A DNA stretch of 64,000 nucleotides, taken from contig JBDGSL010000002.1 of NCBI GenBank assembly GCA_042217555.1, forward strand, positions 79,343-143,342. Direction: 5' to 3'. The stretch comes from Candidatus Nanohalobium sp. Its GTDB lineage: Archaea; Nanohalarchaeota; Nanosalinia; Nanosalinales; Nanosalinaceae. The notes under the pieces are model-generated. The model searched no databases and was not told the origin of the DNA. It worked only from the letters and a program-made list of their open reading frames with translations. Below are positions 34,868 through 58,446 of this stretch, one piece after another (position 1 is the stretch's first letter; each line of letters opens with the position of its first letter). A program made the position numbers and the translations under genes.

Positions 34868-35329
34868 TCAGATTTCCATGCAGTATTCTACCTGTTTCTT
34901 CTTGAATCCTTCTCTCCTGTAAAGTCTTCTGGCCTTCTCGTTTTCTGATTCTACATACAGTTTCAGGTAGTCGCAGTCTTCCTCTACTTCTTTTTTGACA
35001 TGTTCTATAAGTTCTGTGCCGTAGCCCTGTCCTCTAAAGTCTTTTTTGACGTAGAAGCTGAGTATTTCTGCATAACTATCTTTCTTGCGTGTTCTGCGGT
35101 GTCCTTTTTCCACACTGATATAGCCTATTTTCTCTTCCGAGTCTTCAAGGACATATACAGTGTAGTTGTCTTCACTGAATTTTTCTCTTATGGCTTCCCG
35201 GGCCCTGCCTCTTGCATCATCTTTCAGAGAGTTAAAACGAGAGTATCTCTCCATTTCACGGGCTAGAGGCAGCCAGAACTCGTCTACGATGGAATCTGAC
35301 TCCTTTAGAGAGGCTTCACGGATCCTCAT
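34868..35329 (-). CDS. GNAT acetyltransferase
   Basis: YVKKDFRGQGYGTEL, N..ARRLY..EGF. Confidence 0.9.
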   Translation of the reverse strand: MRIREASLKESDSIVDEFWLPLAREMERYSRFNSLKDDARGRAREAIREKFSEDNYTVYVLEDSEEKIGYISVEKGHRRTRKKDSYAEILSFYVKKDFRGQGYGTELIEHVKKEVEEDCDYLKLYVESENEKARRLYRREGFKKKQVEYCMEI

Positions 35330-35390
35330 GAACCAGAAACTACTTTTCCAATAACTTAAACCCTGTTGTCGTGAACCCTGTCCTTCTATA

Positions 35391-35762
35391 ATGTTGGACA
35401 TGGTTCTTGAAACTATGAAGTCAAGAGAGGACTATCTGAGAGCAATATATGAACTTGGAGATGAGGAAGGGACCACTACTTCAGAACTGGCAGAACACCT
35501 GGACGTGTCCGATGCCAGTGCCTCGGAAGCCATACAGAAACTGGAGGAGGATAACCTGGTATGCCGCGCACCGTACAGAGGATTCACCCTGTCACCTATA
35601 GGAAAAGCTGAAGCACAGAAAGTGGCCAGAAAACACCAAGTACTCAGAGAGTTCCTTGAGAAAACACTGGAAGTAGAGAAAGCGGAGGAACAGGCCGACG
35701 CCATCGAACACAGCATAACGGAAGAGACAGCGGAGAAGATCAAGGAACTCAATCAAGGTTAA
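35391..35762 (+). CDS. DtxR/MntR-family metal-dependent regulator
   Basis: EDYLRAIY, RKHQVL, IEH. Confidence 0.92.
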   Translation: MLDMVLETMKSREDYLRAIYELGDEEGTTTSELAEHLDVSDASASEAIQKLEEDNLVCRAPYRGFTLSPIGKAEAQKVARKHQVLREFLEKTLEVEKAEEQADAIEHSITEETAEKIKELNQG

Positions 35763-35807
35763 CCTGTTTTCTTAAGTATTGGCTTCGTTCATTAAAACAC
35801 AGCGTAC

Positions 35808-35978
35808 AGCCCCCTGGTGTAGTGGTCAAATAACTTGAGAACACCTCAGGTTAGGCAATTCATATCGGCCTTTGGAGCCTCAAGTTCTCTCCGCCTGGAG
35901 AGAACGAGGATTAAAGGAAACAACTGAACGTTTCCCCAAAGTTAGCCGGTGACCCAGGTTCGAATCCTGGGGGGGCTA
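35808..35978 (+). tRNA. tRNA-Gln(TTG) with two introns (D-loop 35830-35859; anticodon loop 35876-35943)
   Basis: Removing both introns gives a sequence colinear with tRNA-Gln(CTG); CTTT/AAAG BHB helix. Confidence 0.9.
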
Positions 35979-36189
35979 AACACCTATCATTAATCAATCT
36001 GGGCAAAAACCAGTTACAGCCCGAAAACTGTTTAGCCAATACCTAACACTTTCTCTCAGGAACTCAACACGGCAGGTCAATAACGGAAGCACAGTAGCCC
36101 GTCACATATTCACATCGAACCGTTAATGACCGATGACGGAAACCGTCACCGCCTCCACCAACACAATAAGGTGGGCGGAGTTCATTACA

Positions 36190-37491
36190 ATGACAAACGA
36201 AAACGAACAGAACTCTGCACGCAAAGGCGGAGACCCTAACCGGATGAACGACAAACTCAAGAGCTCACTACAAAAAATCAAAAACTCCAACCAACTCACC
36301 GACCACAACAAAGAAACCTTGCTCGACTTCTACGACTACCTGGACAGAGTAGAAGACATATCAGTCGGCAGAGTAGAAAGACCGCTCACCATCTGGCGAA
36401 TCCTCCTGACAAGGACAGAGAAACAGTTCAAGATGGACGAACCCAGCAAGGAAGATATCGTCAGACTTAAGAACGAGATAATGGACAATGAAATCAAAGA
36501 TGTGAAGACAGGGACGAAACGAGAGTACCTGAAAGCGGTCAACAAGTTCTACAACCACTACATGGAGTACAAGCACAAAGACTTCAACGGAGACAAGTAC
36601 ACCGGATTCTACAAACTCCCAGTAGTCAAGGACGACCAGAAAACCGACCCGGATGTACTCCCAAGACCTCATCATGTCCAAGAACTCGTGGAAAACGCAC
36701 CAAACCTCAGGGACAAAACTCTCATCATGTGCCTCTGGAGCACAGGAGCAAGGCGAGAAGAAGTACTCAACATCAAATGGAAACACGTCAAACTCCGAGA
36801 AGACGGAGGAAAAGTCAAGATACAGGAAAAAGACGAAGACGACTCCAAAAGAACAGTACCGCTATACGAAGGCTACCTCTACCTACAAAGACTCAGAGAA
36901 GAAGACAAGATGGGAGGAGACCCAGAATCCTATGTCTTCAGAAGCACCAAAACCAACGAACAACTATCCTGCAACGGCTTATGCGAAGCCATCAAAAGAG
37001 CCAGAAGACGATCAGAACTACCTGAAGAAAAAGAAAACCTGAGAACCAACCCACACGCCTTCAGAAAAGGAAGAGCCGTATACCTCGCAAAGAAAGGCTT
37101 CACCTACACCGATCTCTGCCAACTACAGGGCTGGGAAATCGGCAGCGACATACCCAAACGCTACATCCGAATAGCAGAAGGAGACATAGACAGCAGAGTC
37201 AGAGACAAAAGCAGAAACTTCGAAAGCGAAGACGAAGAACTCGGAGAAGGCTTCTACTTCGAACCACTACGCTGCCACGAATGCCACCACTTCAACCGAT
37301 GGGAAGCAGACAACTGCGAATCATGCGGCCAAGTCCTCACAGAAAGCGAAATCTTCGAACACACCCAGATAGAAGACATGACAGACGAACTAGTCTACGA
37401 AGTAGCACGAAGCGAAGCAGGAATACAACAAGAAGAAATCAAAGAAAAAGCCAAAGAACTAGTCAAGGAAAGACAAGAAGTAGAGGCATAA
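36190..37491 (+). CDS. Tyrosine recombinase/integrase with C-terminal Zn ribbon
   Basis: TGARREE, HAFRKGR, QGW, KRY; CxxC...CxxC. Confidence 0.93.
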   Translation: MTNENEQNSARKGGDPNRMNDKLKSSLQKIKNSNQLTDHNKETLLDFYDYLDRVEDISVGRVERPLTIWRILLTRTEKQFKMDEPSKEDIVRLKNEIMDNEIKDVKTGTKREYLKAVNKFYNHYMEYKHKDFNGDKYTGFYKLPVVKDDQKTDPDVLPRPHHVQELVENAPNLRDKTLIMCLWSTGARREEVLNIKWKHVKLREDGGKVKIQEKDEDDSKRTVPLYEGYLYLQRLREEDKMGGDPESYVFRSTKTNEQLSCNGLCEAIKRARRRSELPEEKENLRTNPHAFRKGRAVYLAKKGFTYTDLCQLQGWEIGSDIPKRYIRIAEGDIDSRVRDKSRNFESEDEELGEGFYFEPLRCHECHHFNRWEADNCESCGQVLTESEIFEHTQIEDMTDELVYEVARSEAGIQQEEIKEKAKELVKERQEVEA

Positions 37492-37601
37492 AGCCTCTTC
37501 TTTTCCTCAAATTTTTATTCTAGTGGCCTCCTAGGCAAATTACAGAACAAACACCTAAACCAGACGAAACCTTTATATTATTACTTGAAAGTCATAACAG
37601 T

Positions 37602-37868
37602 ATGGCTGCAGAGTTTCAAGAACACAAGATACCTCAATTAGAAGAGGGAGAATTAGAAGGAGCGACAGCTTCAGAAGCCATGGAAGAGATAGAGCGACTG
37701 ATGCAGGAAGAAAATGGCCGGATAAGCGAAGATGCAGCCGATTTTAGATATGAAAGAGAGAAAACAGAAGAAGGTTTCAGATATGTTCCGACCCTAATTC
37801 CGGAGTATTCGACACTGAAGAAGGACAGGAAATTAATGAAGAAATCTTTGAGATTGAAACAGAGTTAG
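37602..37868 (+). CDS. Hypothetical protein
   Basis: Acidic ORF with TATA-like upstream element. Confidence 0.5.
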   Translation: MAAEFQEHKIPQLEEGELEGATASEAMEEIERLMQEENGRISEDAADFRYEREKTEEGFRYVPTLIPEYSTLKKDRKLMKKSLRLKQS

Positions 37869-37909
37869 ATTTTGGAGAGGAAATTCTCTACGATGAAGAT
37901 AATCAGAAG

Positions 37910-38473
37910 ATGGTGATAGACATGGGCTGGAACAGCGAAAGAGAAACATACCAAGTCATAACGGAATCTCAAGAAGTATTTGAAAGCCCAGACTCGCCTA
38001 TAATGTTCCGAAACGAAAAAGGCAAACAGGAAGGAATAATTGAATGGTATCCTGTCCAAGACAGAATCATCATGAAGAACTGTGAAGGCGAAAGAGAGAA
38101 CTGGAAAGAGAGTAGCGAATACCAAGAAAAGAAGAAACTTGAGCTTTTCAGAGACCTTCGAAGACAGAGAAACAAGTTTGAATCTGCCGCAGAAGGTGAC
38201 GAATGGGTTCTCCAGAATAGCGACTCAGCCGCCCAGAAGGCAAGAGAATACTTAATCGATAATCTGTGCCCTATGCTCAAAGACAGGGGAAGAGTCAATG
38301 TAGCTCAAGGCGTCAAAAGACTTGGAGAGAAAGGTCCAAAGTACGGGAATCTGCTTCAAGAGTTTGACACAGCGGTAAATAGATTTGAGATTAAAGTCAG
38401 ACAGGAATATGGTATGGACCCAGACAAAATCGAGATAAAGCATAGCAATGATAAGATTGTCTACCAAGAATAA
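37910..38473 (+). CDS. Hypothetical protein
   Basis: 187-aa ORF. Confidence 0.6.
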   Translation: MVIDMGWNSERETYQVITESQEVFESPDSPIMFRNEKGKQEGIIEWYPVQDRIIMKNCEGERENWKESSEYQEKKKLELFRDLRRQRNKFESAAEGDEWVLQNSDSAAQKAREYLIDNLCPMLKDRGRVNVAQGVKRLGEKGPKYGNLLQEFDTAVNRFEIKVRQEYGMDPDKIEIKHSNDKIVYQE

Positions 38474-38484
38474 GGGTAAGAACA

Positions 38485-38982
38485 ATGACTGAAGAAAACC
38501 CTCGAACCGATGGAATACCAGAAGAAATAGACTATGACATAGACCCAGAAGATGTTCCAGAATCTTGGGAGGACATGGTAGATGAAGAAATAGCCGACAT
38601 AGACACAGATTATCTTGATGCAGACTACGTGAATAAGGCAGGTTATGGAGAGCTGCTTGAAGCACTAGGATATGTAGACGGGGCAGTAGAAGGAAGAGAA
38701 GTCGACGTTGAGATAGATGAATACACCACAGACCAACTTAGATGGGGTTCACTAGACGGACCTGTAGTTCTCAACCTTGAGATGGATGCCACTGACATCC
38801 TAGATGATATTGACGACTCCAGACTTACATATAAAGGAAAGTTCGTGGAAGTAGATCACGAACCTCCGATTGTCCTCGGATTTGGAACTTACGAAGGAAG
38901 TTCAGACCATCAGCCGAGATTCTCAACCGAAAGCCTACGTGTCTCAGCCCCTAATAACGATTTCTACGACGGCTTCGAGTAA
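38485..38982 (+). CDS. Hypothetical acidic protein
   Basis: 165-aa ORF with SD. Confidence 0.7.
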   Translation: MTEENPRTDGIPEEIDYDIDPEDVPESWEDMVDEEIADIDTDYLDADYVNKAGYGELLEALGYVDGAVEGREVDVEIDEYTTDQLRWGSLDGPVVLNLEMDATDILDDIDDSRLTYKGKFVEVDHEPPIVLGFGTYEGSSDHQPRFSTESLRVSAPNNDFYDGFE

Positions 38983-39113
38983 CGCAAACCAGTTCAAGAT
39001 TTAAAGTTTGACTTCGATTTTCCTCACCATCCTTTCCTCTTGAGATAATACGAACACGAACATGAAAAGAATTATAAAGTTACTACGATAAGATAACAAC
39101 ATAAGGTGTCAAC

Positions 39114-40583
39114 ATGCAAAAGGTCAATCACGACCCCGAAGATAGAACTACCAGAGACAAGTTTCTGGATGTATATAACGTAGCCAGAAACGTACATCTA
39201 GAAAACGAGTTTATCGATGTCCACGGAAACCAGTTTAACCCAACAGCATACTTCGGAACGCTTTCAGCAGCACTAAACGGAAACGAACTGATTCAAGGAG
39301 ACCCGGGACGTGGTAAAACTACATCTTCAGAAGCAATTTCTTCACTTGCATACGGAGCACCATTGGAGGTCATTCAAGACGCAGAAGTGAGAGGTAACGC
39401 AGAAGCTACAGAAGAAAAGATTAAAGGAACACTCGACCTCGGAGAACTAAACCAAGGTAATGAAGTCGTACAGTGGAACGACACCGTAATGTACGCACCT
39501 AAAATCATAGACGAGATTAACAGGCTAACACCCGGCACACAAGGAACAATCCTCGACGCCGTAGACCGTAACAACTGGATACTGAAAAACGAAACAATCC
39601 GCTCACCAGACGGACCTTTCTATGCTACCGCCAACAGACAGGACGCAGGGAACACAGAAATGCCTCTCGCAATCCGAGACAGATTCGACGTAGCACTTGA
39701 AGTAAACCATCCAGGACACGAGAACCAGGAGATAATTGACGAAGGCGGACCAGATATATTCAACGAAATACTAAACGATCCAGATGTAGCAGACGACATC
39801 CGAGACATCGTAGAGGATAAAGAATACAGAAGCAAACCTCAAGAAGCAGCAAGACAGGTAACAGAAATCGCACAGGACTTCAGAACACAGATAGAAGACG
39901 AACTCACCGCACTCAAAGGAGACGGATACAAAGTACTTCTACCAACCCCTGAAGACCACCAGCAAGCACTTCAAGAAATCGATAACGTGGACTTAGGCGA
40001 CCAGGCAAGCATGTACCTGAAATTCCTTGACAAAGACCTCAACCTCTGTGGATTTGCTGACGGGAAAAGATGCAACGAACAGTGCGAATATACCGATATT
40101 CCAGCACACAGAATAGCACAGCTGGGAGGAAGAGCCACAACCTCCATCAGAGATTACGCAAAAGCCGCAGCATGGCTGGAAGGCTCTGACACTGCAACAG
40201 TAGACCATGTGGACTCCATTATTCCGTACGCACTGAACCACAGGTCAGAGTTCCAGCAAGACCCACGCAGCGTAGATGTGAAATCGCAGTACGACAGCGG
40301 AACTCACCCGATAGAGTTCAACATCTCCGCAATGATTGCTGGGGAGACAAGAGACCGTTTCGAGGAGAAAGAAGAGGGACTGAGAGAAGCACACCAGATT
40401 CAGCAGCAGGCACTTTACCCCGAAAACTTCGAAGATCCTCTTGACCCTGAAGAAGCTGTCAGCGAACTCGAAGACCTTGCAGAACAGTACGATGACGGTT
40501 CAGACGGATTCGTCCACGACTATATGATGACTGTAAGAGATGAACTAAACGAGCTACACGAAGGCTCAGACTACGGATTCTAA
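39114..40583 (+). CDS. MoxR-type AAA+ ATPase
   Basis: Walker A GDPGRGKT, Walker B IIDEINR, ATAN, DRF. Confidence 0.9.
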   Translation: MQKVNHDPEDRTTRDKFLDVYNVARNVHLENEFIDVHGNQFNPTAYFGTLSAALNGNELIQGDPGRGKTTSSEAISSLAYGAPLEVIQDAEVRGNAEATEEKIKGTLDLGELNQGNEVVQWNDTVMYAPKIIDEINRLTPGTQGTILDAVDRNNWILKNETIRSPDGPFYATANRQDAGNTEMPLAIRDRFDVALEVNHPGHENQEIIDEGGPDIFNEILNDPDVADDIRDIVEDKEYRSKPQEAARQVTEIAQDFRTQIEDELTALKGDGYKVLLPTPEDHQQALQEIDNVDLGDQASMYLKFLDKDLNLCGFADGKRCNEQCEYTDIPAHRIAQLGGRATTSIRDYAKAAAWLEGSDTATVDHVDSIIPYALNHRSEFQQDPRSVDVKSQYDSGTHPIEFNISAMIAGETRDRFEEKEEGLREAHQIQQQALYPENFEDPLDPEEAVSELEDLAEQYDDGSDGFVHDYMMTVRDELNELHEGSDYGF

Positions 40584-40604
40584 CAATTTTTGAGGTGACA
40601 AACC

Positions 40605-42248
40605 GTGAGCTGGGAAGAAGAACTGGATGAAGCCTTGGAAGAGGCTAGAGAAGACTTAGGTTTCCCACCTATAGATGACTGGGAGAAAGAGCCAGGTATA
40701 GGAACAGCTGCGGTTGACATGAGTGCAGTAAGAGGCAAAGTAATGGTAGACCCAGAATTTGCACCTCAACTATCCAATACGGCAAAAAAGGGTTTAATGA
40801 GCCACGAACTCGGCCACCCTAAAAAACATCCCAAAGACGCTAAGACAGCTATCCTTGAGAACCACTGGGGCAAAGAATACAACAATTCCGGAACAGTAGT
40901 CAATCTCTTCGATGACCTCGTGGACAACATCAGCCTGATAATGCAGGGACGTGACAGCCAGGCCGAAGAACTCGAAGCACTATACAGAGAAATATCAGAC
41001 AACCAGCACATGGTTGAAGACGTGATAAGAAGAAGATACGAAGAAGTATCAGACATCAGACACGGAACCGAGGGAGAATTTGACTACGGCTCCACGGTTT
41101 ACGACCCTGAAGGAGAACAGAAAGAACTTCTACAGGTACTACAGTCCATAGACTTCCGACGAAATGAAATTATAGAAGACCACGAGTTCTACTTCCACAA
41201 GTTCGCCTCAGCCTTCGACCCTCACCTCGATGACATGCAACAATCTGGAGACGGTCAGGGAGAACCACAGCAAGGAGAAGGTCAAGAACAGCAGCAGGGA
41301 GAAAGCGGCGGACAAGGAGACGAATACGGAGAAGAGCAGCCATCCGACATAGGAGGAGATGTAGGAGTAGACAGCTTCTCGGAAGATGAAATAGAAGACG
41401 CACTTGACGAAATCGCCCGAGACGAAGAAATAGATGCCGATGAATTTGAAGACATACTCGAAGACACGGCTGAAGAAATAGGAGAAGGCGCCGGAGACCA
41501 GCTAAACCAGAAGATGAACCAGGCAATCGCAACATATTACGACAGTCTCTCTCGACAATACAACCTGAAGATAGAAGGAAGCGTAGCCAACAGGGTCGGA
41601 ACAGCACCGAACGGCCACAAGGACTGGGAACTAGGCGATAGAAGTGACATGATAGACCCAGAAAACAGTCTCGGAAAAGTAGGAATGCCAGGGGTCACCA
41701 AGACACGGAAAATGGACGGATACGAGATGCATGGCGGACAAGCAGAAGGAAAACCGGATGCAACAATTATCCTTGACTCGTCAGGTTCGATGCAAGACCC
41801 TGAAGAACAGACCTCCTACGCAGTTCTCGGAGCATTCTGTGCAGCCAATTCATACCTCGGCAATGGTTCAGAAGTAGCAGTCGCCAACTTCAGCAATGAG
41901 ACAGAAATTACCGAGTTCACGAAGGATCAGACAGAAGTTCAAGAAGCTCTGGTAGACTATCAAGCTGGAGGCACAAACCTCGATGTAGAAGCAATACAGG
42001 AATTGGAAGGACAGAAAACCGAAGACACACACTCAATCCTGATCACCGATGCAGGAATAGAAAACTTTGACGACACCGTCGAATACCTGGAAAACAGTCA
42101 CGGCAGGAACACCGTTCTCTGGATAAACGGCGAATACGACGATTTGCCAGAAGAATACAGTGAACTACAAGAAGCACCTCAAACCTCGCTCTACCATATA
42201 CAAGATGAAAGCGACATACCAAACGTCGTCCTCGGTGAAGTAAGATGA
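40605..42248 (+). CDS. HExxH metallopeptidase-like domain + acidic linker + VWA domain
   Basis: SHELGH...NLFDDLVDN; MIDAS DSSGS, GGT, ITD. Confidence 0.88.
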   Translation: MSWEEELDEALEEAREDLGFPPIDDWEKEPGIGTAAVDMSAVRGKVMVDPEFAPQLSNTAKKGLMSHELGHPKKHPKDAKTAILENHWGKEYNNSGTVVNLFDDLVDNISLIMQGRDSQAEELEALYREISDNQHMVEDVIRRRYEEVSDIRHGTEGEFDYGSTVYDPEGEQKELLQVLQSIDFRRNEIIEDHEFYFHKFASAFDPHLDDMQQSGDGQGEPQQGEGQEQQQGESGGQGDEYGEEQPSDIGGDVGVDSFSEDEIEDALDEIARDEEIDADEFEDILEDTAEEIGEGAGDQLNQKMNQAIATYYDSLSRQYNLKIEGSVANRVGTAPNGHKDWELGDRSDMIDPENSLGKVGMPGVTKTRKMDGYEMHGGQAEGKPDATIILDSSGSMQDPEEQTSYAVLGAFCAANSYLGNGSEVAVANFSNETEITEFTKDQTEVQEALVDYQAGGTNLDVEAIQELEGQKTEDTHSILITDAGIENFDDTVEYLENSHGRNTVLWINGEYDDLPEEYSELQEAPQTSLYHIQDESDIPNVVLGEVR

Positions 42249-43099
42249 AACAAAGCAGACTATATAGCGAAATTCTCGAAGAGAGGGATGAAGAGACTCA
42301 TCGACCTAATCCTGTCTCTAATGAAAACCAATCCGATTACTCTATTCATGATGCCTACAACGATTGGCTGGCGCAACTACCTGATCTTAAAAATGAATAT
42401 CAAGATATAGGTAACTTGGGAAATGATATCTACAGAGCTAGAGACAACAAATATAGAGAAGCCCTCTTCCTTGCGGAAAAAGCGACTTACGATAAAGAAG
42501 ATCTTCAAACCTTCCTAAATGGAAACTGGGCTATTGGTTGGAGAGATGAAATGACAACAGAAAGTGCCTCCAGTCATAAAGATTACCTACATCATGAGCA
42601 TAAAATCAAACAGGGAATATTTGCATCGGCATTCATAGAGATTTTAGATAACGAAATAGTTTCTATTCCAAGTGTAGATGTAGAAGGAATTGGATATGGG
42701 AATACCAGTAATATCCGGGTTGAAGGGGATGTCAAGGCCGGTTCCTTCTGTGATAAAATGAGCGGAGGGAACGTTATAGTCGAGGGCGATATCACCGATA
42801 CACTCGGTAATGGAATGACTGGCGGCGAAATAGAGGTAAGAGGTGATGCAGACACAGTTTTGGACAATGAAGATTCTTCTACGATCAAAATTGAGGGGGA
42901 TTTACGAAGATATCTTGGGGTAGGCGGAACAACTAGGGTCTCTGGAAATTTAGAGGAAATTACAGGCCTCGGTATTGCCGGAGAAGTATACGTGGAGGGA
43001 GAAATTAATAATTTAGGAATTGATCTGCCAGAAGATGTAACTATATATCAAAAACAAGACGGAAACTGGACTGAGGTTTTTCCAAGTGATTCTCAGTGA
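42245..43099 (+). CDS. GXGXG/FwdC-like beta-helix protein, paralogue 1
   Basis: MSGGNVIVEGD, GNGMTGGEIEVRGD. Confidence 0.8.
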   Translation: MKQSRLYSEILEERDEETHRPNPVSNENQSDYSIHDAYNDWLAQLPDLKNEYQDIGNLGNDIYRARDNKYREALFLAEKATYDKEDLQTFLNGNWAIGWRDEMTTESASSHKDYLHHEHKIKQGIFASAFIEILDNEIVSIPSVDVEGIGYGNTSNIRVEGDVKAGSFCDKMSGGNVIVEGDITDTLGNGMTGGEIEVRGDADTVLDNEDSSTIKIEGDLRRYLGVGGTTRVSGNLEEITGLGIAGEVYVEGEINNLGIDLPEDVTIYQKQDGNWTEVFPSDSQ

Positions 43100-44343
43100 A
43101 ACAACGCGATATTTACAGAGATATCTTGGATAAAAGCAGCGGAGAACAGAGGAATAGCATGTCTCAGCCAGGCCAAGATTTCAATATAGTCACGAACCCT
43201 ATGCTAGAGCAGTTCAGATTCTTGCAGAATACCTATGAAGAATGGGGAGAGGTTATTGAAGAAGAGGGTATAGATGAGAGTAGAGAAAAATTGGAAGTTG
43301 CTGAAGAACTTTTAGACGAAAATTATTCTGAAGAAGCTATTCACGACCTTTTAAGCGAATTCAAAGACCGAGATTGGAGCATTAATGAACCAAACCAAAG
43401 TATCTACATGTCAGCCGTAATAAATCAAATAGGCGACGAAACTATCTCAATCGAACCAGATAATCTTTCTGAACTAACTGGTTTAGAAGGACTAGGATAC
43501 AGGAATAAAACCGATGTCACTATTGAGGGAGACATATATGAAAACATATTCCGGGAGAACATAGCAGGTAATGTCAATATTGAAGGTGACATTAACTCCC
43601 GAGTTGGGGAGGAAATGATGGGCGGCACCATCAAGGTAAACGGAGACGTCACTGGGACCTTCGGAATAGGACGTCATATGCAGGGAGGACGAATAATAGT
43701 AGAGGGATACGTCGAGAAAGCAGGAACCGGTATGAAAAATGGATTTGTTAGAGTTACAGAAGAAGCCGAAAAACTCGGAAAAAGCATGGAAGGTGGAGAA
43801 ATAGGTTCAGAGCAATCTGTTGAAAAACTTGCGAATTCCGCAAAAGGAGGAATTGCATGGGTCAATGACGATGCTGAAGAAGTTGGAAATTATGCTAAGG
43901 GTGGCCTAATTTACGTAGCAGGGGACGCTGAAGAAATCGGTGAAAGAAGCAGAGATGGAGAGATCTACATAGAAGGAGAAATCGGAAATATTGGAGAAAG
44001 ATGTGGTGCAGACGTATATCAGTGGAGAGACGGCGAATGGGAGTTAGTCCACGAAGGAGAAGACCGACAACCTCGACGCAACCAAGGAAAGAGTAAAAGC
44101 ACCAGCACACCCACTAAAACCTCTAGAAGTTCTTCAGAGATAATGGAACACGAAGAGTCTTATGAAGAACTTGAAGAAATGAACAATATTCTGGAGTATG
44201 ATGACGATGACTTCGGATTCTATGATGAAGAAAGTTACGAGACTAAAACTAAGGAAGCCCCAACTGGACTGGCTGAAAAAGTAGAGGAACTCGATCCACT
44301 TTCTGAAAAACCGATAGAAGAGCAGTTGAGGGATGAGGAATGA
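43096..44343 (+). CDS. GXGXG/FwdC-like beta-helix protein, paralogue 2
   Basis: GEEMMGGTIKVNGD, GRHMQGGRIIVEG. Confidence 0.82.
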   Translation: MKQRDIYRDILDKSSGEQRNSMSQPGQDFNIVTNPMLEQFRFLQNTYEEWGEVIEEEGIDESREKLEVAEELLDENYSEEAIHDLLSEFKDRDWSINEPNQSIYMSAVINQIGDETISIEPDNLSELTGLEGLGYRNKTDVTIEGDIYENIFRENIAGNVNIEGDINSRVGEEMMGGTIKVNGDVTGTFGIGRHMQGGRIIVEGYVEKAGTGMKNGFVRVTEEAEKLGKSMEGGEIGSEQSVEKLANSAKGGIAWVNDDAEEVGNYAKGGLIYVAGDAEEIGERSRDGEIYIEGEIGNIGERCGADVYQWRDGEWELVHEGEDRQPRRNQGKSKSTSTPTKTSRSSSEIMEHEESYEELEEMNNILEYDDDDFGFYDEESYETKTKEAPTGLAEKVEELDPLSEKPIEEQLRDEE

Positions 44344-45148
44344 AACAGAGCGAACTGTATAGTGATATTTTGGAGTCAGAGACAGCAGATAAAATAGTTT
44401 CAGGAGACACTCAGGCAAGCATAAGTCCTGATTATACTGTAAGAGATGCTTACAACGATTGGAAATCTAGCTTGCCTGATATGCCAGAAGATTCTGAAGC
44501 ATTCAAACAGCTTAGTAAAATCAAGGATCAAAAATATGAAGAAGCACTTGAATTAGCTTCTGTAGCCGAATACGACCAAAGCGACCTATTCGCATTTCTT
44601 AAATAGATTGGCGAAAAGGCTGGGAAGACGACATCGGAAATTATGAGAAGAATCCAAGTTCGGTAAGAGACGGAATATTTGCTTCTGCATTTGCTGAAGC
44701 ATTAGAAGCTCAAGAAGTTCGAGTTCCTGATATGTCGGGTGTTTTTGAGTTCGGATACCGTAACAGCAGCGATTTAATAGTTGAAGGAGATGTTGGAGAC
44801 TCCTTTGGCATAATGATGGAAAGTGGGAAAGTAACGGTCAGAGGTGACTCTGATCTCAATCTTGCTCACACCATGAAAGATGGTGAAATAGAAGTCGAAG
44901 GTGATGTTGAAGGGATCTGGAATCCAAGCGGAAGGGTCGTGGTTCAAGGAGATGTAGAAAGTGCCTACCAGATCGAAGGCGAGCTAATTGTGAAGGGAGA
45001 TATTGACGAAATATCTGGAGATGACCGTTTCGAACGAGAAGGAGAGATACGTGTAGAAGGAGAAATAGGCTCAGTTAATGAAGAAGAAATTGAAGGAACA
45101 GAAGTCTATCAAAACCAAAATGGAAACTGGGAGCAAGTTTTTCCCTAG
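44340..45148 (+). CDS. GXGXG beta-helix protein, paralogue 3, -1 frameshift at ~44602
   Basis: Adding one A joins 44340..44606 to 44732..45148; colinear with paralogue 1. Confidence 0.75.
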
Positions 45149-45157
45149 GTGAAAGAA

Positions 45158-45331
45158 ATGAAAATTAGCGACCTATATGAAGATGTATTAGCTTCAGAGC
45201 AAGAAAGAGCTTCAAATAGGACTATCTCTGAGGAAAAAGAATCTGAAGGGCTAATACCTCATTTCCAGCAATTCTATGAAGATCACGAGTTAAACGAACA
45301 CGAAACTGCGACCGAAATATCTGAGGAGTAG
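45158..45331 (+). pseudogene. Truncated paralogue 4 (N-terminal tag only)
   Basis: MKISDLYEDVLA; cut off at the resolvase junction. Confidence 0.6.
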
Positions 45332-45822
45332 CTTTTTTCGGAGTATTTCAGTGCGATGGATTCTTTTTCGCTTTCTGTGAGGCTGGAGGGACGCCCGACC
45401 TTGCCCTCTTGCTTGGCTTTCTCGAACCCTTCTTCCATTCTGCGGCGTATCATCTTCCGCTCTAAGTCGGCGAACAGTGCAAGCTGGTTCAGTAGGAACT
45501 CGCCATACATCTCATCCTCTGTATTGATGGGCTGGTCGAGTGCCTGGAACTCCGCACCGTTCTCACGGACTTTATTGATGCGTTCTAGGAAGTCTTGGAG
45601 TGAGCGGGCGAAACGGTCTATTTTCGTGACAACAACCTTGTCGTAGTCTTCGATGTTCTGCATTATTTTCTCGAACTCAGGGCGTTCTTTGATACTGGAT
45701 GCTTTCTCACTGTAGAGGTCGAAATTCCAGTCCTCCTGTTCAGCGTGTTCACGAAGTTTTTCTTCCTGTGGTTCAAGGTCTTGATTCTGTGTGGATACAC
45801 GGGCATATAATGCGGCTTTCAT
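45283..45822 (-). CDS. Serine recombinase (resolvase/invertase), C-terminal HTH probably truncated
   Basis: YARVST..Q, RPEF, KIDRFARS, GRP. Confidence 0.93.
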   Translation of the reverse strand: MKAALYARVSTQNQDLEPQEEKLREHAEQEDWNFDLYSEKASSIKERPEFEKIMQNIEDYDKVVVTKIDRFARSLQDFLERINKVRENGAEFQALDQPINTEDEMYGEFLLNQLALFADLERKMIRRRMEEGFEKAKQEGKVGRPSSLTESEKESIALKYSEKSYSSDISVAVSCSFNS

Positions 45823-45980
45823 AGCGGTTCTTCAGAAACAACAGTATAATGCAACTTAAAGCCTTCGAAACCTTCCTGCTTCAGAAACATATGGTTTCGG
45901 ATTTATCTCTAATTCTGTATGTCATCACCGACACATTTATAAAGTTACTACTACAATATAACAACATAAGGTGAACAACC

Positions 45981-46631
45981 ATGGGAGAAGACATCATTCA
46001 CGAGAATGCTTCCGAATACATCGAAACTGGAGATGTTCGGGAAGTTCTCAACGACTACGACCACAACTTTGGAAACACTGAATATGGAGCTTACAACGTG
46101 GATGCTCTAGAAGGAAAATTGGATGTAGAAGGAGAAGAACACCCAGTCCACTACCAGATGAAGAAGATGGGAGCGGAGTTCCTCGCCCGTGATATGCTCA
46201 GAGATGGGGTAGTTGAAGTCATAAGATGGGATGGAGGATACTCAGGAAACAGAAAACAACCATCTGGAAGTATTGTAGGCCGGCCCTCGGCTAGCGATAA
46301 AGGTTCTGCCAAACTCAGAGATTTTGATGCAAGAGATTTCGGAGATTTCTACCAAGAAGTTTTAGAGAAAGATGCATCAGAACACGGGTTTGCACGAGAT
46401 AGCGATGCTACAGCAGCAACTGCGGTCGCACTTTCAGCGATTGACAGAGCATTAGAAGACGAATTAGAAGACGAAGTTAACAACTATACCAGAAACGAAG
46501 ACGCTTCTGTTTTTCAGATGCATCAACAGCCAAGCAGTGAGCGCTACATTGGAGAAGTAGCTAATGACGCAGAAGCACAAGCCTTCCAGCCAAAGTCATT
46601 CGGTCAGAGAGTTGTAGAGAAACTCAGCTAA
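45981..46631 (+). CDS. Hypothetical protein sharing its promoter sequence with the MoxR gene
   Basis: 216-aa ORF, SD AGGTGA. Confidence 0.75.
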   Translation: MGEDIIHENASEYIETGDVREVLNDYDHNFGNTEYGAYNVDALEGKLDVEGEEHPVHYQMKKMGAEFLARDMLRDGVVEVIRWDGGYSGNRKQPSGSIVGRPSASDKGSAKLRDFDARDFGDFYQEVLEKDASEHGFARDSDATAATAVALSAIDRALEDELEDEVNNYTRNEDASVFQMHQQPSSERYIGEVANDAEAQAFQPKSFGQRVVEKLS

Positions 46632-46725
46632 ACAGCTTCCATTTAGGAAGCACTCATTTCCTCTTTTTCTTCTATTTTTGAATCAGATAGAAAATCCTTT
46701 TATTTGACCAGTAACACGATAACTT

Positions 46726-47447
46726 ATGGTTTTAGATAACGAGGAGGCTAAATGGGATGAAGAAGAAAGACAGTTTCAGAATCCGAAAGATGTAAAACAT
46801 CAAATCCGTGACTCCTATATCTTCAGAAACCCTGGAGAGTGGGAAGCACAGGTAGAAGCACTTACAAGGAAAGAAGATAAAGCCGCTCACAACTCCTCAA
46901 AGGCGTAGAAAGATTAGAAGCAGAAACTAAAGAAATTTTGGAGGAAGAAGAACACTTTAAGAACTTTCTCAACGGTCTTATGAGAGATATAGAAAAACTT
47001 GAGGAAAGAGAAGGTAAAGTAGATGAAATTCTCGAAGCAGAAAATGAGATGGAGAGAACAAGAAATCAAGCCTTTGAAGGTGCTGGCGAAGATGAACGAG
47101 TAGGTATGAGAAATATTGAAAACGCCTTAAGAGATTCTTTAGAAGATGAAGTAGAGATGCTTCACGTCATTAGACACAAGATTGAACTCGGTCATAAAGT
47201 CTTACAGGATATAAAAGCTAGGCTGGATAGAGAAGAAGGAGATGTGGCGACTGTTGATGATATAGAGGAAAAAATGCTGGAAGGTGAAGAAAAGATAACA
47301 GAGATTCTGCAAGAGATAAGCCATAAATCTGACCTCAACCTCCACGTGGATGCGGGAGATGCAAAAAAGAACATCGCAAATATGAGCAGAGCTAATCTAA
47401 GCGAGGACGCAGAATACCTATTGAACAAAGTTTCAGACACACATTAA
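46726..47447 (+). CDS. Coiled-coil hypothetical protein, probable frameshift near 46890
   Basis: The frame of 46938..47447 extends upstream (QLLKGVERLEAETKEI) into 46726..46908. Confidence 0.55.
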
Positions 47448-48326
47448 TCAAACACAAACTTGTCAAACTGAATCCGACACCCCTCTGTATTCCCCTACGG
47501 ACACGCACACGCCTGAACCCTGCGGAAACAACCCTTCTAATTCCTGAAAACAGGTTCAAACAAGGCACTTTGCAGGGCTTGGCTACATCTGTAGGGAGTT
47601 TTCCGCCATATAATTGTCGGGAATCTCCACTGAGTCGGTTCTGAAGATTTCTCCCCGACGTGGTTGGGGATGCTCTCGGTCATATAATACCAGTGCGAAG
47701 CTATAGTCGTTCTCAGGGTCAAGAGGGAAGTAATCAGGGTTTGTCCAGTCAAGACCGTCCTCTAGCCGCCCCTGAATAAGTTCCCTGTAATCCTTCTTGC
47801 TCCATTCTTCTGGGTTCGAGTTCAGGTCGAATCGTGCTACGGACAGTCGTATATCGCCCTTCAGGAGGCAGAAGACGAGGAAATCTGGGAAAAAGAAAGG
47901 ATAACGGAAGCAGAAATTCTTCTCCGTGTAGAGGATGATAAGCTCCAAGAAATACGGAAGCAACTACAGAAAACCTACCGCAACATCCAGAAACGTTTGA
48001 AAGAGATACACGAGGAAAACGCTAAAACCTACAAAGACATCTCAGATATACAGATTATGGAGCTTCTGACAGGCGAGAAAAACAGGATTTCTGACACTTT
48101 ATTCCAAATGGAAGACAAGGAAGGCGGGCTAGGAGAGGAAGAACAGAAGGAAATTGAAATGCTTCTGCAAGGCAGATACTGAACCGAAAAATGTAAAGTC
48201 CGCCACCACCGATATAGATTTGGGGCATAGTCCTACAAACTCGACACTCCAGACACAGTCCTGGGGGGCTAAACTTTTCCCTGTCTGGAGTAGCTTCTTA
48301 TCGTTTCGGTTGCAGAAACAGTTTTT

Positions 48327-48608
48327 ATGACAGAGGTACGTGCATCACACATCCTGGTAGATAACAAGGAACATGCAAAACAGTTGAAGCTCAAGATCGA
48401 AAGAGATGAAGCCTCGTTTGAGGAACTGGCGGAGGAGCATTCCGAGTGCCCTTCAAGGAGTAAAGGCGGCGATCTCGGATTCTTCGGAAGGGGAAAGATG
48501 GCTAAACCGTTCGAGAAGAAGGCCTTTGAAATGGACATAGGCGAGGTCTCAGATCCGGTGAAGACGGAGTTCGGATGGCATATCATCCGAAAAGACGATG
48601 AACGGTAA
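48327..48608 (+). CDS. ppiC: Parvulin-type peptidyl-prolyl isomerase
   Basis: RASHILV, GGDLGFF, VKTEFGWHII. Confidence 0.95.
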   Translation: MTEVRASHILVDNKEHAKQLKLKIERDEASFEELAEEHSECPSRSKGGDLGFFGRGKMAKPFEKKAFEMDIGEVSDPVKTEFGWHIIRKDDER

Positions 48609-48703
48609 TCCTCTTTTTCCTGTGAAGCAGAAGAATCTTTTTTGAGAGACCGGAAGGGGTTGGCCCGGACATCTTTTATTTCTTCAGACAGGTTAGTCTA
48701 AGC

Positions 48704-55330: not shown

Positions 55331-55650
55331 TTTAAAAAGGTACTTGACCTTATTAGGCTACAAGGAAGAAACCAGATTCAGCAATACAGCGGACCCCGCT
55401 TTGATTCCCACAGATTGTTAGTACACGCCCAAGAGGAAAACGGGCCAAGGTTTTTTTACGGGAATCGGGATCCCGCGGAGCGAACACAAACCCCACTTAC
55501 AGTCTTCCTCCCTGAGTGACGCTTCGACACCCAAAAACAAACAAAGAAAAAACACGGGAGAAAGAAGACCAGGGGAACACTACGCATCCTCAGGTCTCAA
55601 AAACAAAGACAAAAAACACGCGTAGAAACACACAATAGGTGCAACACACA
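55331..55650 (+). promoter_or_regulatory. Promoter and long structured leader of the S-layer gene
   Basis: TTTAAAAA at 55331; nested stems; SD AGGTG before ATG 55651. Confidence 0.55.
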
Positions 55651-58446
55651 ATGCAATCAATCAAGAAGCTCACCGACAAGGTGGCAAACAACGTATCAAC
55701 CATCGCTGGTTCCGCACTACTCGTAGGCGCAACCCTCACAGGAGGAGCAGCATTCGCTGCAGCCCAGAGTGGGTCCAGTGGAAACAGCATGGATCTCGGA
55801 GACTATCCACAACCATTCGTAACAGAAGACGGACAAGTACAGACAAGCATCGTCCTAGGAAGCGACGCAAAAGTAACCGACGTAGTCGGAGCAACAGAAA
55901 TCGCAGGTTCACTAGGAAACGCAGCATTCAAACAAGAAACAAAATCAGTCTCCGTATCAGGAGCAGGCGGAAGCTGGAGTGCATCCAACGGAGTAACACT
56001 AGACACAGCAAACGACAACCTGTACTTCGGAGACAGCCTAGATACAGTAAGAGACACTCTAACTTCAGAGCAGTTGAGCTCACTGAAGGACACAACATTC
56101 CAGGACGACAACGGAGATGAGACAGACATCGAGAATTATCTCTACCCTGGAAGTCTACAGACAACATTCGGAAAGCCTGACGACAGAAACAACCAGGATC
56201 CGATTCACTACGTAAGCAACCCAGCAGATCCTACATCAAACAACAACCTGTTCACACTACAGGCAAACTTCGAAGACGAGATCGACTTCGCAGCTGACGA
56301 CGTAGAAGACGAAGAGATCCAGCTATTCGGAAACACCTACACAGTTTCCACAGACACAACTTCCGGAGAGCTTGTCCTTTACGGATCACAGGACACAACT
56401 TCAGTAGCTTCTGGAAAATCAACAACCATCACGATCAACGGAAACGAACACACGTTCGAGGTTGTAGGAGTAACAGGAAAGAACACAGCTGCATTCAAAG
56501 TTGACGGAGAACTACAGCAGAAGGATGAAGAAGACACAATAACAGTCGACGGAACAGAAGTCAGACTTTCAGATGTAATCCAGACAAACGCTGACCAGTC
56601 TCAGGGAACCGTAACATTCGCAATCGGAAACAACGAGCTAGTCCTCAAGGAAGGCGAAGCAATTGAAGACGGCGATGGAAACGACATCGACGGAACAAAG
56701 GTCAACTTCCAGGGACTAGACGCACAGGACGACAACAACGACGACAGCAACGAAGCTGACGACAGTGAAGAGATGGCGGCTTCAGGAATCGAGATCTACG
56801 TCGGCGCACAGAACGACGACCACGAGTACATCCAGGCTGGAAACAGCTACAGTCACGAGCTATTCCCAGAATTCACATTCCGCTACGGAGGACTTGCACC
56901 TGACGCAAGCAACGCAGATTCAGAAAACGTTCACCAGGTAGAGTTCTCCACAAGCGGAGACGACACAGTCACAGTCGGAATGACAGCAGACGGTTCAAGC
57001 ACAAGCCTTGAAGCACTGCACAACCCAGACCCTGCAAGCGATAACAGTTACCTACTCGGTGACGACGACGGAGACCAGTACGTAGTAAAGGAAGGAGCAT
57101 CCGTCTACGAAGACGAATACGTCGCAGCTGACGCAGGAGACTTCGCACACATCTGGGAAGTCACCAACATCGACAGAGACACAGCAGGCACAAACCTAAG
57201 TGCAGGCGACGAAGCAGTAGTCACACTTCAGGACGCAGTAACAGGAGACACAGTTGAAGTTGACGTTGACGCAGCTAACCCAACAGCTAACGCAGCTAAC
57301 GCTGATGAAGACTACACCGGTACAGAAGTCATCGACGGACAGACCTACCACATCACAGTTGACGGAACCGCAGATGACGCAAGCACCAATGGACGCGAAG
57401 GTTACGGTGTCCGAATGGCTTACGGTGGAGCAAGCGCAACAGTAGTCAACGATGGTCCAGACACACTGGACACAGGAGATGCAACATCACTTTACGCTCC
57501 TGTAGACACAGCATCTGGCTCAGCAATCGCACTGACAGAAGAGATCACAGGTCTGTCAAACAACACTGTAGTCGAGCTTCCTTCAACAGAATCTACAGAC
57601 GCCAAAACACACAACGTCTCACTTGCCGATGGTAAAGTCAACGAGTTTACAGTTGGACAGACACTCTACCAGGCAGAGAACACTGCAGGCGCTGGAGGCG
57701 TAAAGGTATCTGTAGATCCAGATCAGAGTACAGATACAAATTACGACCCAGCCAACGCTGGAGTTCTGACAGTCCTTCCTGAGGACGACAACGACAACGA
57801 AGAATCTTACTTCGTTGGCGCAGGTTACGATGGACAGGACGATCAGATCACAGTCAACAACGCAGATTACTCAGGTGCGATGAACAACAGACAGTCATCC
57901 ACACTTGAGAGCAACAACGATGTAACTGCGTACGTTGACTACTACGGAGCTTACTCCGAGTTTGACAGTGACGAGCAGAAGAGCTTCACACTGAACATCC
58001 CAGCAGGACAGTCGACCGTTGGAGCTGCTTTCACCACGCAGGCTGGAAGTCTTTCAAGTGAAGGCGGCGGATCTGGTTCAGTTCAGACCCAGATGCCTAC
58101 GTGGCAGCGTGCTGACGGAGTTCTTGCTGACGACGGTAACGTCGGTCAGGTCAAGCAGAACGAGAACGTTATCCTGGTAGGAGGCCCAGCAGCTAACAGC
58201 CTTACACAGGAGCTTGTTGCTGACAACCAGACCATGCCAGCATCCGAGTACACACAGGGACAAGGTATGATCCAGTTGGTTGATGGCTTCAGTGAAGGCC
58301 ACCAGGCTCTTGTAGTTGCCGGTTACAGCGGTAAGGACACGAGAGCTGCTGCAGAGTTCCTGGCTAACTACAGGAACAATCAGGATGCACTGGAAGGTAA
58401 GGAGAAAGTCACAATTTCGACTTCCACCGGTAGTGTAGTCAATTAA
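55651..58446 (+). CDS. S-layer protein
   Basis: Signal peptide, YPQPFV...IVLG N-domain, ILVGGP.AN...LVVAG...T.AAA C-domain; very acidic. Confidence 0.88.
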   Translation: MQSIKKLTDKVANNVSTIAGSALLVGATLTGGAAFAAAQSGSSGNSMDLGDYPQPFVTEDGQVQTSIVLGSDAKVTDVVGATEIAGSLGNAAFKQETKSVSVSGAGGSWSASNGVTLDTANDNLYFGDSLDTVRDTLTSEQLSSLKDTTFQDDNGDETDIENYLYPGSLQTTFGKPDDRNNQDPIHYVSNPADPTSNNNLFTLQANFEDEIDFAADDVEDEEIQLFGNTYTVSTDTTSGELVLYGSQDTTSVASGKSTTITINGNEHTFEVVGVTGKNTAAFKVDGELQQKDEEDTITVDGTEVRLSDVIQTNADQSQGTVTFAIGNNELVLKEGEAIEDGDGNDIDGTKVNFQGLDAQDDNNDDSNEADDSEEMAASGIEIYVGAQNDDHEYIQAGNSYSHELFPEFTFRYGGLAPDASNADSENVHQVEFSTSGDDTVTVGMTADGSSTSLEALHNPDPASDNSYLLGDDDGDQYVVKEGASVYEDEYVAADAGDFAHIWEVTNIDRDTAGTNLSAGDEAVVTLQDAVTGDTVEVDVDAANPTANAANADEDYTGTEVIDGQTYHITVDGTADDASTNGREGYGVRMAYGGASATVVNDGPDTLDTGDATSLYAPVDTASGSAIALTEEITGLSNNTVVELPSTESTDAKTHNVSLADGKVNEFTVGQTLYQAENTAGAGGVKVSVDPDQSTDTNYDPANAGVLTVLPEDDNDNEESYFVGAGYDGQDDQITVNNADYSGAMNNRQSSTLESNNDVTAYVDYYGAYSEFDSDEQKSFTLNIPAGQSTVGAAFTTQAGSLSSEGGGSGSVQTQMPTWQRADGVLADDGNVGQVKQNENVILVGGPAANSLTQELVADNQTMPASEYTQGQGMIQLVDGFSEGHQALVVAGYSGKDTRAAAEFLANYRNNQDALEGKEKVTISTSTGSVVN

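Follow-up and report, generated by a model that had tools for sequence, protein, structure and literature searches.

The DNA examined here is a stretch of 64,000 nucleotides (the window) from Candidatus Nanohalobium sp. (GenBank assembly GCA_042217555.1, contig JBDGSL010000002.1, positions 79,343 to 143,342 of the forward strand). The main finding of our analysis is that an operon located in it, encoding a MoxR-class AAA+ ATPase, a VWA-domain protein and a series of β-helix paralogues with a common N-terminal tag (called the handle where its proposed function is discussed), constitutes the principal cargo of an integrative mobile element of 12.3 kb, inserted in a tRNA-Gly(CCC) gene (Table 1). 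The core of this element is conserved, whereas its array of β-helix genes is swapped between elements in the form of whole-gene cassettes. Only tentatively, as something possible rather than probable, do we suggest that it represents a mobile, cassette-based protein-handling system of DPANN archaea, in which the MoxR protein and an adaptor with a metal site and a metal ion-dependent adhesion site (MIDAS) would load, activate or assemble exchangeable capped β-helices bearing a universal N-terminal handle, and which would act in competition between elements or in dealings with the haloarchaeal host. A preliminary description of this DNA had already recognized the packed operon of MoxR, HExxH/VWA and four tagged paralogue genes, and these lie where it had placed them, overlapping or abutting one another; it overlooked the integrated mobile element and the two broken paralogues. 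What is added here is the mobile carriage, the contrast between a selected core and a swapped array, the natural presence and absence of the element, and the leaderless form of the handle in halophiles.

The window is chromosomal archaeal DNA containing ribosomal-protein operons, SecY, an intein-bearing RtcB and an S-layer-like protein, and the genome from which it comes (1.3 Mb) is 94% complete. The tRNA gene used as the integration target had been overlooked by ARAGORN in its default mode and by Rfam. The 12-mer GGGGGGCTAAAC is present at both 35970 and 48263. Element-free chromosomes were found among the contigs of metagenome runs labelled salt-lake (X1 and X3-X5, of which X3 comes from another study than the window source). 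In X1, such a contig joins 35978 to 48334 at a depth of 4.7, as compared with 38.2 for the element-bearing contig, and in X5, 35980 is joined to 48332 at a depth of 7.3. A congener with a complete genome (G047) also lacks the element at the matching site: the distance from the tRNA segment to the gene for a peptidyl-prolyl isomerase is 1.3 kb there, versus 12.4 kb here, and the interval holds only three small membrane-protein open reading frames (ORFs).

Distribution of the element is patchy. Among 70 species genomes of the phylum (~1 Mb each), a strong match was obtained only in the source genome, G000. A search with paralogue 1 gave matches in 2 of the 70, the second being a weak, tag-less one in G038 (26% identity, E 1.5e-4), which is not a clear member, since its 3.4-kb locus (L008) shows no N-terminal tag and no MoxR or VWA gene. 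The VWA protein matched 3 of the 70, and the two genomes besides the source, G002 and G059, owe this to generic VWA domains (E about 1e-6 over 105-183 residues). A scan of a genome collection yielded only a weak Bradyrhizobium match (L010; 33% over 83 residues).

The sole match from a metagenome scan, a contig of 15,963 bp designated L009, represents a sister element. It carries a different integrase, followed by the same core: positions 37565-42308 of the window correspond to 2359-7094 of L009 with 96% DNA identity. All 28 codon differences in the MoxR gene are synonymous, the protein being identical; the gene for the VWA protein shows 75 synonymous and 6 non-synonymous differences, and the gene for a protein of 165 amino acids (aa) shows 13 and 1, respectively. 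Because almost only synonymous changes have accumulated, it can be concluded that the core of the element is under strict purifying selection. The similarity breaks off 64 bases into the first β-helix gene, and the array of L009 consists of seven tagged β-helix genes (328, 290, 329, 254, 323, 323 and 658 aa, the last consisting of two fused modules) with no recombinase. Similarity returns only at 45104-45336 (81.5%), encompassing the last 45 bases of one gene and the first 180 of the next. The supposition of the preliminary description that the β-helix genes are interchangeable was thus borne out, as the sister element keeps the core and carries a different set of seven, and individual contigs differ by cassette.

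In a maximum-likelihood tree of the β-helix proteins (36 rows), each paralogue from the window clusters with proteins from elsewhere, not with its neighbours: paralogue 1 with P0002 and P0003 (support 100/100), paralogue 2 with P0085, P0086 and P0093 (97/95), and paralogue 3 with P0088 (100/98). This grouping indicates that the arrays are assortments of old, distinct subtypes which have been exchanged as whole genes. In runs X3-X5, contigs of mostly 95-99% identity extend over the integrase, core, MoxR and VWA genes; the region 42484-43331, belonging to paralogue 1, is almost uncovered, with zero depth except for 1.72 in X4 over 42908-43331. Two joints, from 42257 to 43109 (depth 2.7) and from 44019 to 45151 (depth 2.5), delete whole cassettes from tag to tag, and at such low depth they are to be taken as hints of cassette turnover, not as a proof. 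Apart from these exchanges, a fusion of two complete β-helix modules into one protein of ~650 aa was noted at 12584-14542 of L009 and in P0075, the second module having no handle of its own.

Neighbouring genes of the operon overlap or adjoin at their stop and start codons, and a GGTGA-type site is present for each of them, so that they form a translationally coupled unit; the VWA gene starts 22 nt past the MoxR stop, an arrangement found also in L009. The beginning of the operon had previously been set at 39072, which proved to be the first base of a 37-nt upstream element and not of the MoxR gene itself (39114). The MoxR protein scores 33.2 bits with the Pfam family AAA_5 and 31.4 bits with AAA_lid_2, above the respective cut-offs of 22 and 22.7. 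It contains the Walker A sequence GDPGRGKT at residue 62 and three cysteines at positions 312, 320 and 324, and its matches to the chelatase families BchD and ChlI are weak.

In the VWA protein, the HELGH sequence occupies residues 67-71, and the MIDAS set D391, S393, S395 (DxSxS, 391-395), T457 and D482 is invariant in 20 of 20 aligned homologues. Residues H67, H71 and D104 of its N-terminal head are invariant in the same 20 proteins, and might form a conserved metal site. In the structural model (predicted local distance difference test, pLDDT, 74.9), three short strands precede the HExxH helix (58-74) and further helices; there are also two acidic linkers, both disordered, and the VWA domain, which extends to the C-terminus (residue 547) with no C-terminal effector domain. 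Fold searches were dominated by the latter domain (28 Foldseek matches at E <= 1e-3), residues ~380-547 of the model giving VIA Z scores from 16.3 to 12.7 for 50 VWA chains. Matches to this domain include the NorD VWA in the NorQ-NorD complex (Z 14.0), the MIDAS domains of MDN1 (13.8) and Rea1 (13.2), and BchD (13.1); the score for Pfam VWA_2, 26.3 bits, falls just below the cut-off of 27. For this protein 70 homologues were found, with names from Nitrospirota, Archaeoglobus veneficus, Syntrophobacteria and Thermodesulfobacteriota.

Paralogues 1-4 begin with MKQSRLYSEILE, MKQRDIYRDILD, MKQSELYSDILE and MKISDLYEDVLA, respectively, and the three long ones close with a YQxxxGxW cap. The N-terminal motifs and the caps read as they had been quoted in the preliminary description, and since they were found again in 10 further relatives, their occurrence is not a matter of chance. 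In the model of paralogue 1 (pLDDT 76.1), the tag is disordered (residues 1-29, pLDDT 33-41) and is accompanied by a helical domain at 34-133 and a β-helix. Its closest structural matches are FhcC (6s6y_C, Z 14.7, root-mean-square deviation 2.9, 169 residues aligned), an FwdC-type chain (8rja_I, Z 14.5) and the C-domain of glutamate synthase (6s6s_A, Z 13.1), other β-helices reaching Z <= 11; in Foldseek, 5t5i_C and 8rja_C were the best.

Thus, the paralogues have in common with FwdC, FhcC and the glutamate synthase C-domain (PF01493, TIGR03122) the right-handed β-helix fold and the GXGXG repeat. They differ from these proteins, however, by an additional N-terminal helical domain and handle, by occurrence in tandem arrays and by scores far below cut-off. 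Matches to PF01493 and TIGR03122 are only partial, paralogue 1 scoring 34.1 bits for TIGR03122 against a curated cut-off of 130.65, and none of the 3 matches to this family in the whole genome lies above the cut-off. Another difference is the absence of a Fwd, Fhc or GltS partner. This had been remarked earlier for the window and holds for the whole 94%-complete genome, in which neither the glutamate-synthase FMN domain PF01645 (detected in 14 of 14 reference genomes used as a control) nor the FwdB-type molybdopterin domain PF00384 (11 of 14) was found. In its own genome, the β-helix family is confined to this locus. The proteins comprise the helical N-domain and the β-helix and nothing else, which leaves the proposal of the preliminary description that they are sensors or effectors unsupported. 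As a separate observation, the subtype of paralogue 2 bears a tail of ~100 aa past the cap, ending in the same words (PLSEKPIEEQLRDEE) in the distant relative P0124, and this shared end may be a second short docking motif.

A profile built from 13 family members and run against 1.84 billion representatives retrieved 5430 proteins at E <= 1e-3, of which 470 reached E <= 1e-30. The bulk of the family are proteins of ~300 aa from non-halophiles, labelled 'formylmethanofuran dehydrogenase subunit C' or 'hypothetical', whose features are a helical N-domain, a variable number of GXGXG turns, the cap GKIYHKGKLIVDK and the N-terminal motif LA[MIV][AGS]xRFGRYKPEEEKxVRK. A hidden Markov model of this motif matched 148 of 246 family proteins at an independent E-value <= 0.01; of these 148, 118 have it at residue 15-24 and 10 at residue 0-4, most relatives carrying a short basic leader ahead of the handle. 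The tag of the halophile proteins aligns with the family motif, its Tyr7 falling on the invariant Phe. The tag in the window is thus a leaderless, acidic, halophile form of an N-terminal motif common to the whole family; acidity is general here, the isoelectric points of 17 of 17 element ORFs lying between 4.0 and 5.6. A second acidic branch, with the handle MG[LIF]xDE[YF], comprises P0092, P0101, P0126, P0137, P0139, P0150, P0161 and P0219 and may come from other halophiles.

Outside the halophile loci, tandem arrays of the family are frequent, and they occur in other DPANN archaea as well. In a metagenome-assembled genome (MAG) of Micrarchaeota, five family genes follow one another by locus tag (H0O00_03225 to 03245), and further members are spread over five other contigs. 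At least 8 members lie on a contig of 14,464 bp, and at least 6 on another of 23,292 bp. MoxR and VWA genes directly upstream of the array were seen in both halophile-type loci with visible context, namely the window and L009.

The mechanism that we favour, although we would give it no more than even chances, is that the VWA protein acts as an adaptor which presents β-helix clients, held by the N-terminal handle, to the MoxR motor. The machine would then be composed of three parts: the MoxR-class AAA+ motor, the adaptor with its HExxH metal-site head and MIDAS-bearing VWA domain, and a set of clients, the capped FwdC-like β-helices with a common short disordered handle in which an aromatic and a hydrophobic residue are followed by an acidic patch. 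The adaptor would grip the handle, either in a groove of its HExxH head or by means of the metal of the MIDAS, and pass the client to the MoxR ring, where ATP hydrolysis would remodel, assemble or release it. Disorder of residues 1-29 in the monomer model of paralogue 1 is as expected for a docking peptide. Since the β-helix bodies are of different lengths, have different surfaces and pass between elements as whole-gene cassettes, such a machine would serve a changing repertoire of clients.

An analogy, though not more than that, is provided by Rea1 (Midasin), an AAA_5-type ATPase whose MIDAS grips and pulls an N-terminal ubiquitin-like (UBL) domain common to its clients Rsa4 and Ytm1. The model of our VWA protein matches the MIDAS of MDN1/Rea1 no better than it does other VWA domains, and the handle is here a short peptide, not a UBL domain, with the ATPase and the MIDAS residing on separate proteins. 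The logic of a shared leader, a peptidase-like module and an ATPase also resembles pilin or effector systems, from which the proposed machine would differ in being entirely cytosolic and in making use of an enzyme-scaffold fold. In formulating the mechanism we were guided by the principle published for MoxR-vWA systems, according to which vWA domains capture a substrate peptide and MoxR releases the substrate in an altered conformation (PMC7159879, available sections).

As the operon is carried by a patchily distributed mobile element, its role would most likely lie in competition between genomes or in dealings of the symbiont with its host cell, either of which is plausible. What is demonstrated is the set of genes, their coupling, a conserved core, the turnover of cassettes, mobility and an N-terminal motif found throughout the family, whereas the binding partners, a cleavage of the handle and this biological role are what we infer.

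Several findings weigh against the mechanism and role proposed above. The preliminary description had labelled the second protein peptidase-VWA, and while HELGH and a complete MIDAS are indeed present, the Glu of HExxH occurs in only 13 of the 20 aligned homologues and is missing in 7, and the head (residues 1-215) gave no Pfam match to a peptidase family even at E <= 10. Peptidase activity, to which the HExxH motif is the sole pointer, is therefore possible in the present protein and not a constant of the family. None of the acidic residues in the handle is conserved without exception in both the halophile proteins and the general family, and binding at the MIDAS thus finds no support at the level of residues. 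The spread of the family over at least six contigs of the Micrarchaeota MAG implies that many of its members are probably not located beside a MoxR-VWA pair. Moreover, the copy in the window seems to be decaying, with two frameshifts and one truncated paralogue, and may have ceased to function. The element proteins showed no membrane or secretion signal which could back a role in conflict or towards the host. Complex prediction for the VWA protein with paralogue 1, both entered as alignments, gave a score of 0.00, which is uninformative either way.

A different explanation is that the operon is dedicated to defence against viruses or plasmids, or to counter-defence, and that the variable β-helices sense or block invaders. 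This would be in line with the patchy distribution, the mobile carriage and the presence of a variable array beside a conserved core, as well as with the ternary MoxR-vWA systems proposed to function in biological conflicts (PMC7159879), in which MoxR and vWA are accompanied by a variable third component. According to the available sections of that work, those systems are likewise mobile and patchy, and their third protein combines a conserved interaction part with a variable one. However, the third components named there are VMAP, iSTAND, FtsH and β-propeller proteins, with GXGXG, β-helix and FwdC not mentioned in these sections, and the FwdC-like β-helix is none of the four kinds (an assignment made for VMAP-C without a profile search). 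The C-terminal effector domains of vWA proteins typical of those systems, effector-associated domains, caspase, TIR and cyclase are absent here, and the host is an archaeon, in contrast to a multicellular bacterium. Pfam and further family searches of the element revealed no effector-type domain (nuclease, TIR, caspase or pore), and the β-helix subtypes are old and conserved between elements instead of hypermutating. The preliminary description had envisaged use in defence and proposed screening for known systems; of the 13 element proteins compared with PADLOC-DB 2.0, 11 had no match and none had a credible one, the two marginal hits (E 0.0028 and 0.0081) falling on the resolvase and the 169-aa ORF. 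We therefore consider a dedicated defence function rather unlikely.

It may also be asked whether the operon is an inactive relic of a once-active element. All four paralogues reported previously are present, although the third is frameshifted and the fourth reduced to a 57-aa stump. In the former, a one-base frameshift separates ORFs 44340-44606 and 44603/44732-45148, so that the N-terminal 88 codons stop at 44604-44606; in a contig from run X3 (depth 6.9), 44603 is followed by one extra base. The latter corresponds to the first 57-60 codons of a gene which is 326 aa long in L009, its DNA homology ending at 45336, within the 3' end of the convergent serine-recombinase gene. A third lesion is a 1-nt deletion at 37788, in a C-run, which breaks the 290-aa core gene, and the recombinase shows no detectable helix-turn-helix (HTH). 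On the other hand, the MoxR, VWA and 165-aa genes and paralogues 1 and 2 are intact, and the changes in the core are almost all synonymous. Since both single-base lesions sit in short homopolymer runs and the assembly is a metagenomic one, they could be assembly errors; contigs of the source run itself agree with the window at these positions, but they are not independent. Decay, in addition, describes the state of the present copy, not the nature of the system, and as an explanation of the operon it seems unlikely.

Still less probable, in our opinion, is a virion morphogenesis module of a provirus or satellite, in which the β-helices would be parts of fibres or spikes, assembled by the MoxR-VWA pair and processed by the HExxH head. 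Location on an integrating element, and a cassette exchange reminiscent of that of receptor-binding proteins, would suit such a module. A MoxR and metallopeptidase-vWA pair of group 2.2 jumbo phages has been proposed to act in virion assembly with proteolytic processing, and a pair from Acidianus two-tailed virus, as cited in the same paper, is needed for tail assembly (PMC7824862, available sections). As far as these sections describe them, the phage and viral pairs are the nearest architectural precedent, since in the former a vWA protein with an N-terminal metallopeptidase-like domain is encoded beside MoxR in a mobile genome. The likeness of our β-helix to phage tail fibres, in contrast, is of a generic level only (9rkv_M, Z 9.7; 8egr_A, Z 9.5).

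The pairs described in PMC7824862 differ from ours in that the latter has FwdC-like putative clients, no virion genes and no relative by sequence among viruses. No match was obtained in IMG/VR scans (with paralogue 1, the VWA protein, MoxR, the family alignments A6 and A2 and the VWA alignment A4), and neither PLSDB plasmids nor INPHARED phages yielded one at E <= 1e-5 in a tblastn search with the VWA protein. Comparison with PHROGs brought up no capsid, portal, packaging or membrane protein (five of the element ORFs belonging to no family), and the only match of the β-helix was to a family of unknown function (E 3.4e-4). The spindle and pleomorphic viruses of nanohaloarchaea possess capsid or membrane proteins that are hydrophobic, and MoxR, vWA and β-helix are not mentioned in the available text of the preprint that describes these viruses (10.1101/2025.02.15.638363). 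The element proteins include no hydrophobic segment (maximum 19-residue Kyte-Doolittle mean 1.27). In addition, the β-helix family is abundant in cellular MAGs.

Equally doubtful is a chaperone of the NorQ/NorD or CbbQ/CbbO type, engaged in metal insertion or enzyme repair, for which the β-helix would serve as a scaffold or third subunit. To our knowledge, the pairs of these two types are the only MoxR-VWA pairs whose mechanism is known, and the structural matches of the VWA domain to NorD and BchD, the weak matches of MoxR to chelatase families and the possible metal site at H67, H71 and D104 point towards them. As in NorQ/NorD, CbbQ/CbbO, CoxD/CoxE, RavA/ViaA and BchI/BchD, a MoxR-type gene is directly followed by one for a VWA protein with a complete MIDAS. 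Here, however, the VWA protein has an N-terminal HExxH head, there is an obligatory third component, the FwdC-like β-helix, in 4-8 copies, and the whole set is mobile and, within the phylum, strongly matched only in the source genome. No candidate target enzyme is encoded in the element or beside it, nor does the genome contain a glutamate synthase or Fwd partner, and four to eight divergent β-helix genes per locus, together with cassette turnover, do not fit a single dedicated client.

In the open-access literature we found neither a published trio of MoxR, vWA and FwdC-like β-helix proteins nor a report linking Nanohaloarchaeota with MoxR in such a system. MoxR-VWA pairs are, as far as we know, ubiquitous, with a client known for only a handful. 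Here the operon itself supplies likely clients, which have a handle in common and exist as natural variants, so that the grip and action of a MoxR-VWA pair can be tested directly with a few soluble proteins. It is also clear that a tRNA-integrating mobile element can have a MoxR/VWA/β-helix trio as its principal cargo, and that databases mislabel these β-helix proteins as subunit C of formylmethanofuran dehydrogenase. If a role in conflict between symbiont and host, or between elements, were true, the operon would be among very few such candidate systems in nanosized archaea.

Table 1. Coordinates (window numbering) of the integration site, the element and its genes
Feature	Position	Strand	Basis
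tRNA-Gly(CCC) gene with 95-nt intron, integration target	35808-35978	+	ARAGORN with introns allowed; conserved in congeners
attL, direct repeat CCTGGGGGGGCTAAAC, 3' end of tRNA plus 3 nt	35966-35981		Sequence read
Tyrosine integrase, 452 aa, Cys-rich C-terminal tail	36133-37491	+	Pfam Phage_integrase, 61.8 bits; PHROG integrase; XerA-like
Element core gene, no known family, 290 aa; intact in L009, split here	37602-38473	+	Comparison with L009
Element core gene, 165 aa, very acidic, no family match	38485-38982	+	Synonymous versus non-synonymous differences from L009
37-nt upstream element (TTATAAAG ... AAGGTG), just before MoxR	39072-39108	+	Direct repeat D6; also upstream of MoxR in L009
MoxR-class AAA+ ATPase, 489 aa	39114-40583	+	AAA_5, AAA_lid_2, Walker A
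Proposed adaptor protein, 547 aa: N-terminal HELGH head, acidic disordered linkers, C-terminal VWA with complete MIDAS	40605-42248	+	Alignment A4, model
β-Helix paralogue 1, 284 aa, intact	42245-43099	+	Orthologues P0002 (75%), P0003 (59%)
β-Helix paralogue 2, 415 aa, intact, long acidic C-terminal tail	43096-44343	+	Clusters with P0085, P0086, P0093
β-Helix paralogue 3, frameshifted near 44601-44606	44340-45148	+	ORF reading; 269-aa relative P0088 unbroken
β-Helix paralogue 4, 57-aa N-terminal stump	45158-45331	+	Matches first codons of L009 gene 8900-9877
Serine recombinase (resolvase/invertase catalytic domain)	45283-45822	-	Pfam Resolvase, 130.5 bits, residues 3-141 only; PHROG DNA invertase
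Second copy of 37-nt upstream element, before ORF 45981 (216 aa), just past recombinase	45937-45973	+	92% identical to 39072-39108
Strain-specific right arm: ORFs of 216, 60, 169, 126 (minus strand) and 61 aa, no known family	45981-48182		ORF list, family searches
attR, direct repeat CCTGGGGGGCTAAAC	48260-48274		Repeat comparison

Among the remaining features of the element, the 37-nt sequence has a TATA-like start and a GGTG end, and is probably a promoter with a ribosome-binding region. L009 holds only the copy on the MoxR side. The repeat may be a shared promoter, which is the simpler reading, or a recombination scar. A possibility that the two copies are recombinase sites flanking an excisable block, from MoxR to the resolvase, was discarded, as no contig joint of this kind was found and L009 has a single copy. 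Pfam and further family searches detected no HTH in the serine recombinase, whose catalytic domain is intact. The 3' end of its gene overlaps the stump of paralogue 4, its last codons being the antisense of the latter, and it seems that both genes were cut at one rearrangement junction near 45336. An inversion shufflon driven by this recombinase was rejected, the paralogues all having the same orientation and notable inverted repeats being absent.

The right arm is nearly uncovered in runs X3-X5 and absent from L009. Searches of NCBIfam and Pfam with the 290-, 165-, 216-, 169-, 126-, 61- and 60-aa ORFs of the element yielded nothing credible; for the 165-aa core protein, whose own model is poor, the ESM Atlas contained no match above 0.88. 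Rfam gave nothing at E <= 0.1 over 35300-48700.

Outside the element, a second, ordinary MoxR-like gene is located elsewhere in the genome (contig C66, 5707-6177, designated L007; 30% identity over 160 residues). The RtcB tRNA ligase gene of the window, at 3038-5884, is interrupted by an intein (Pfam RtcB, Intein_splicing, Hint). Candidate surface proteins are encoded at 3-1100 (minus strand), 8089-9462 and 55639-58446, and comprise two proteins with a lectin fold of the concanavalin-A/laminin-G type and an S-layer-like protein of 935 aa.

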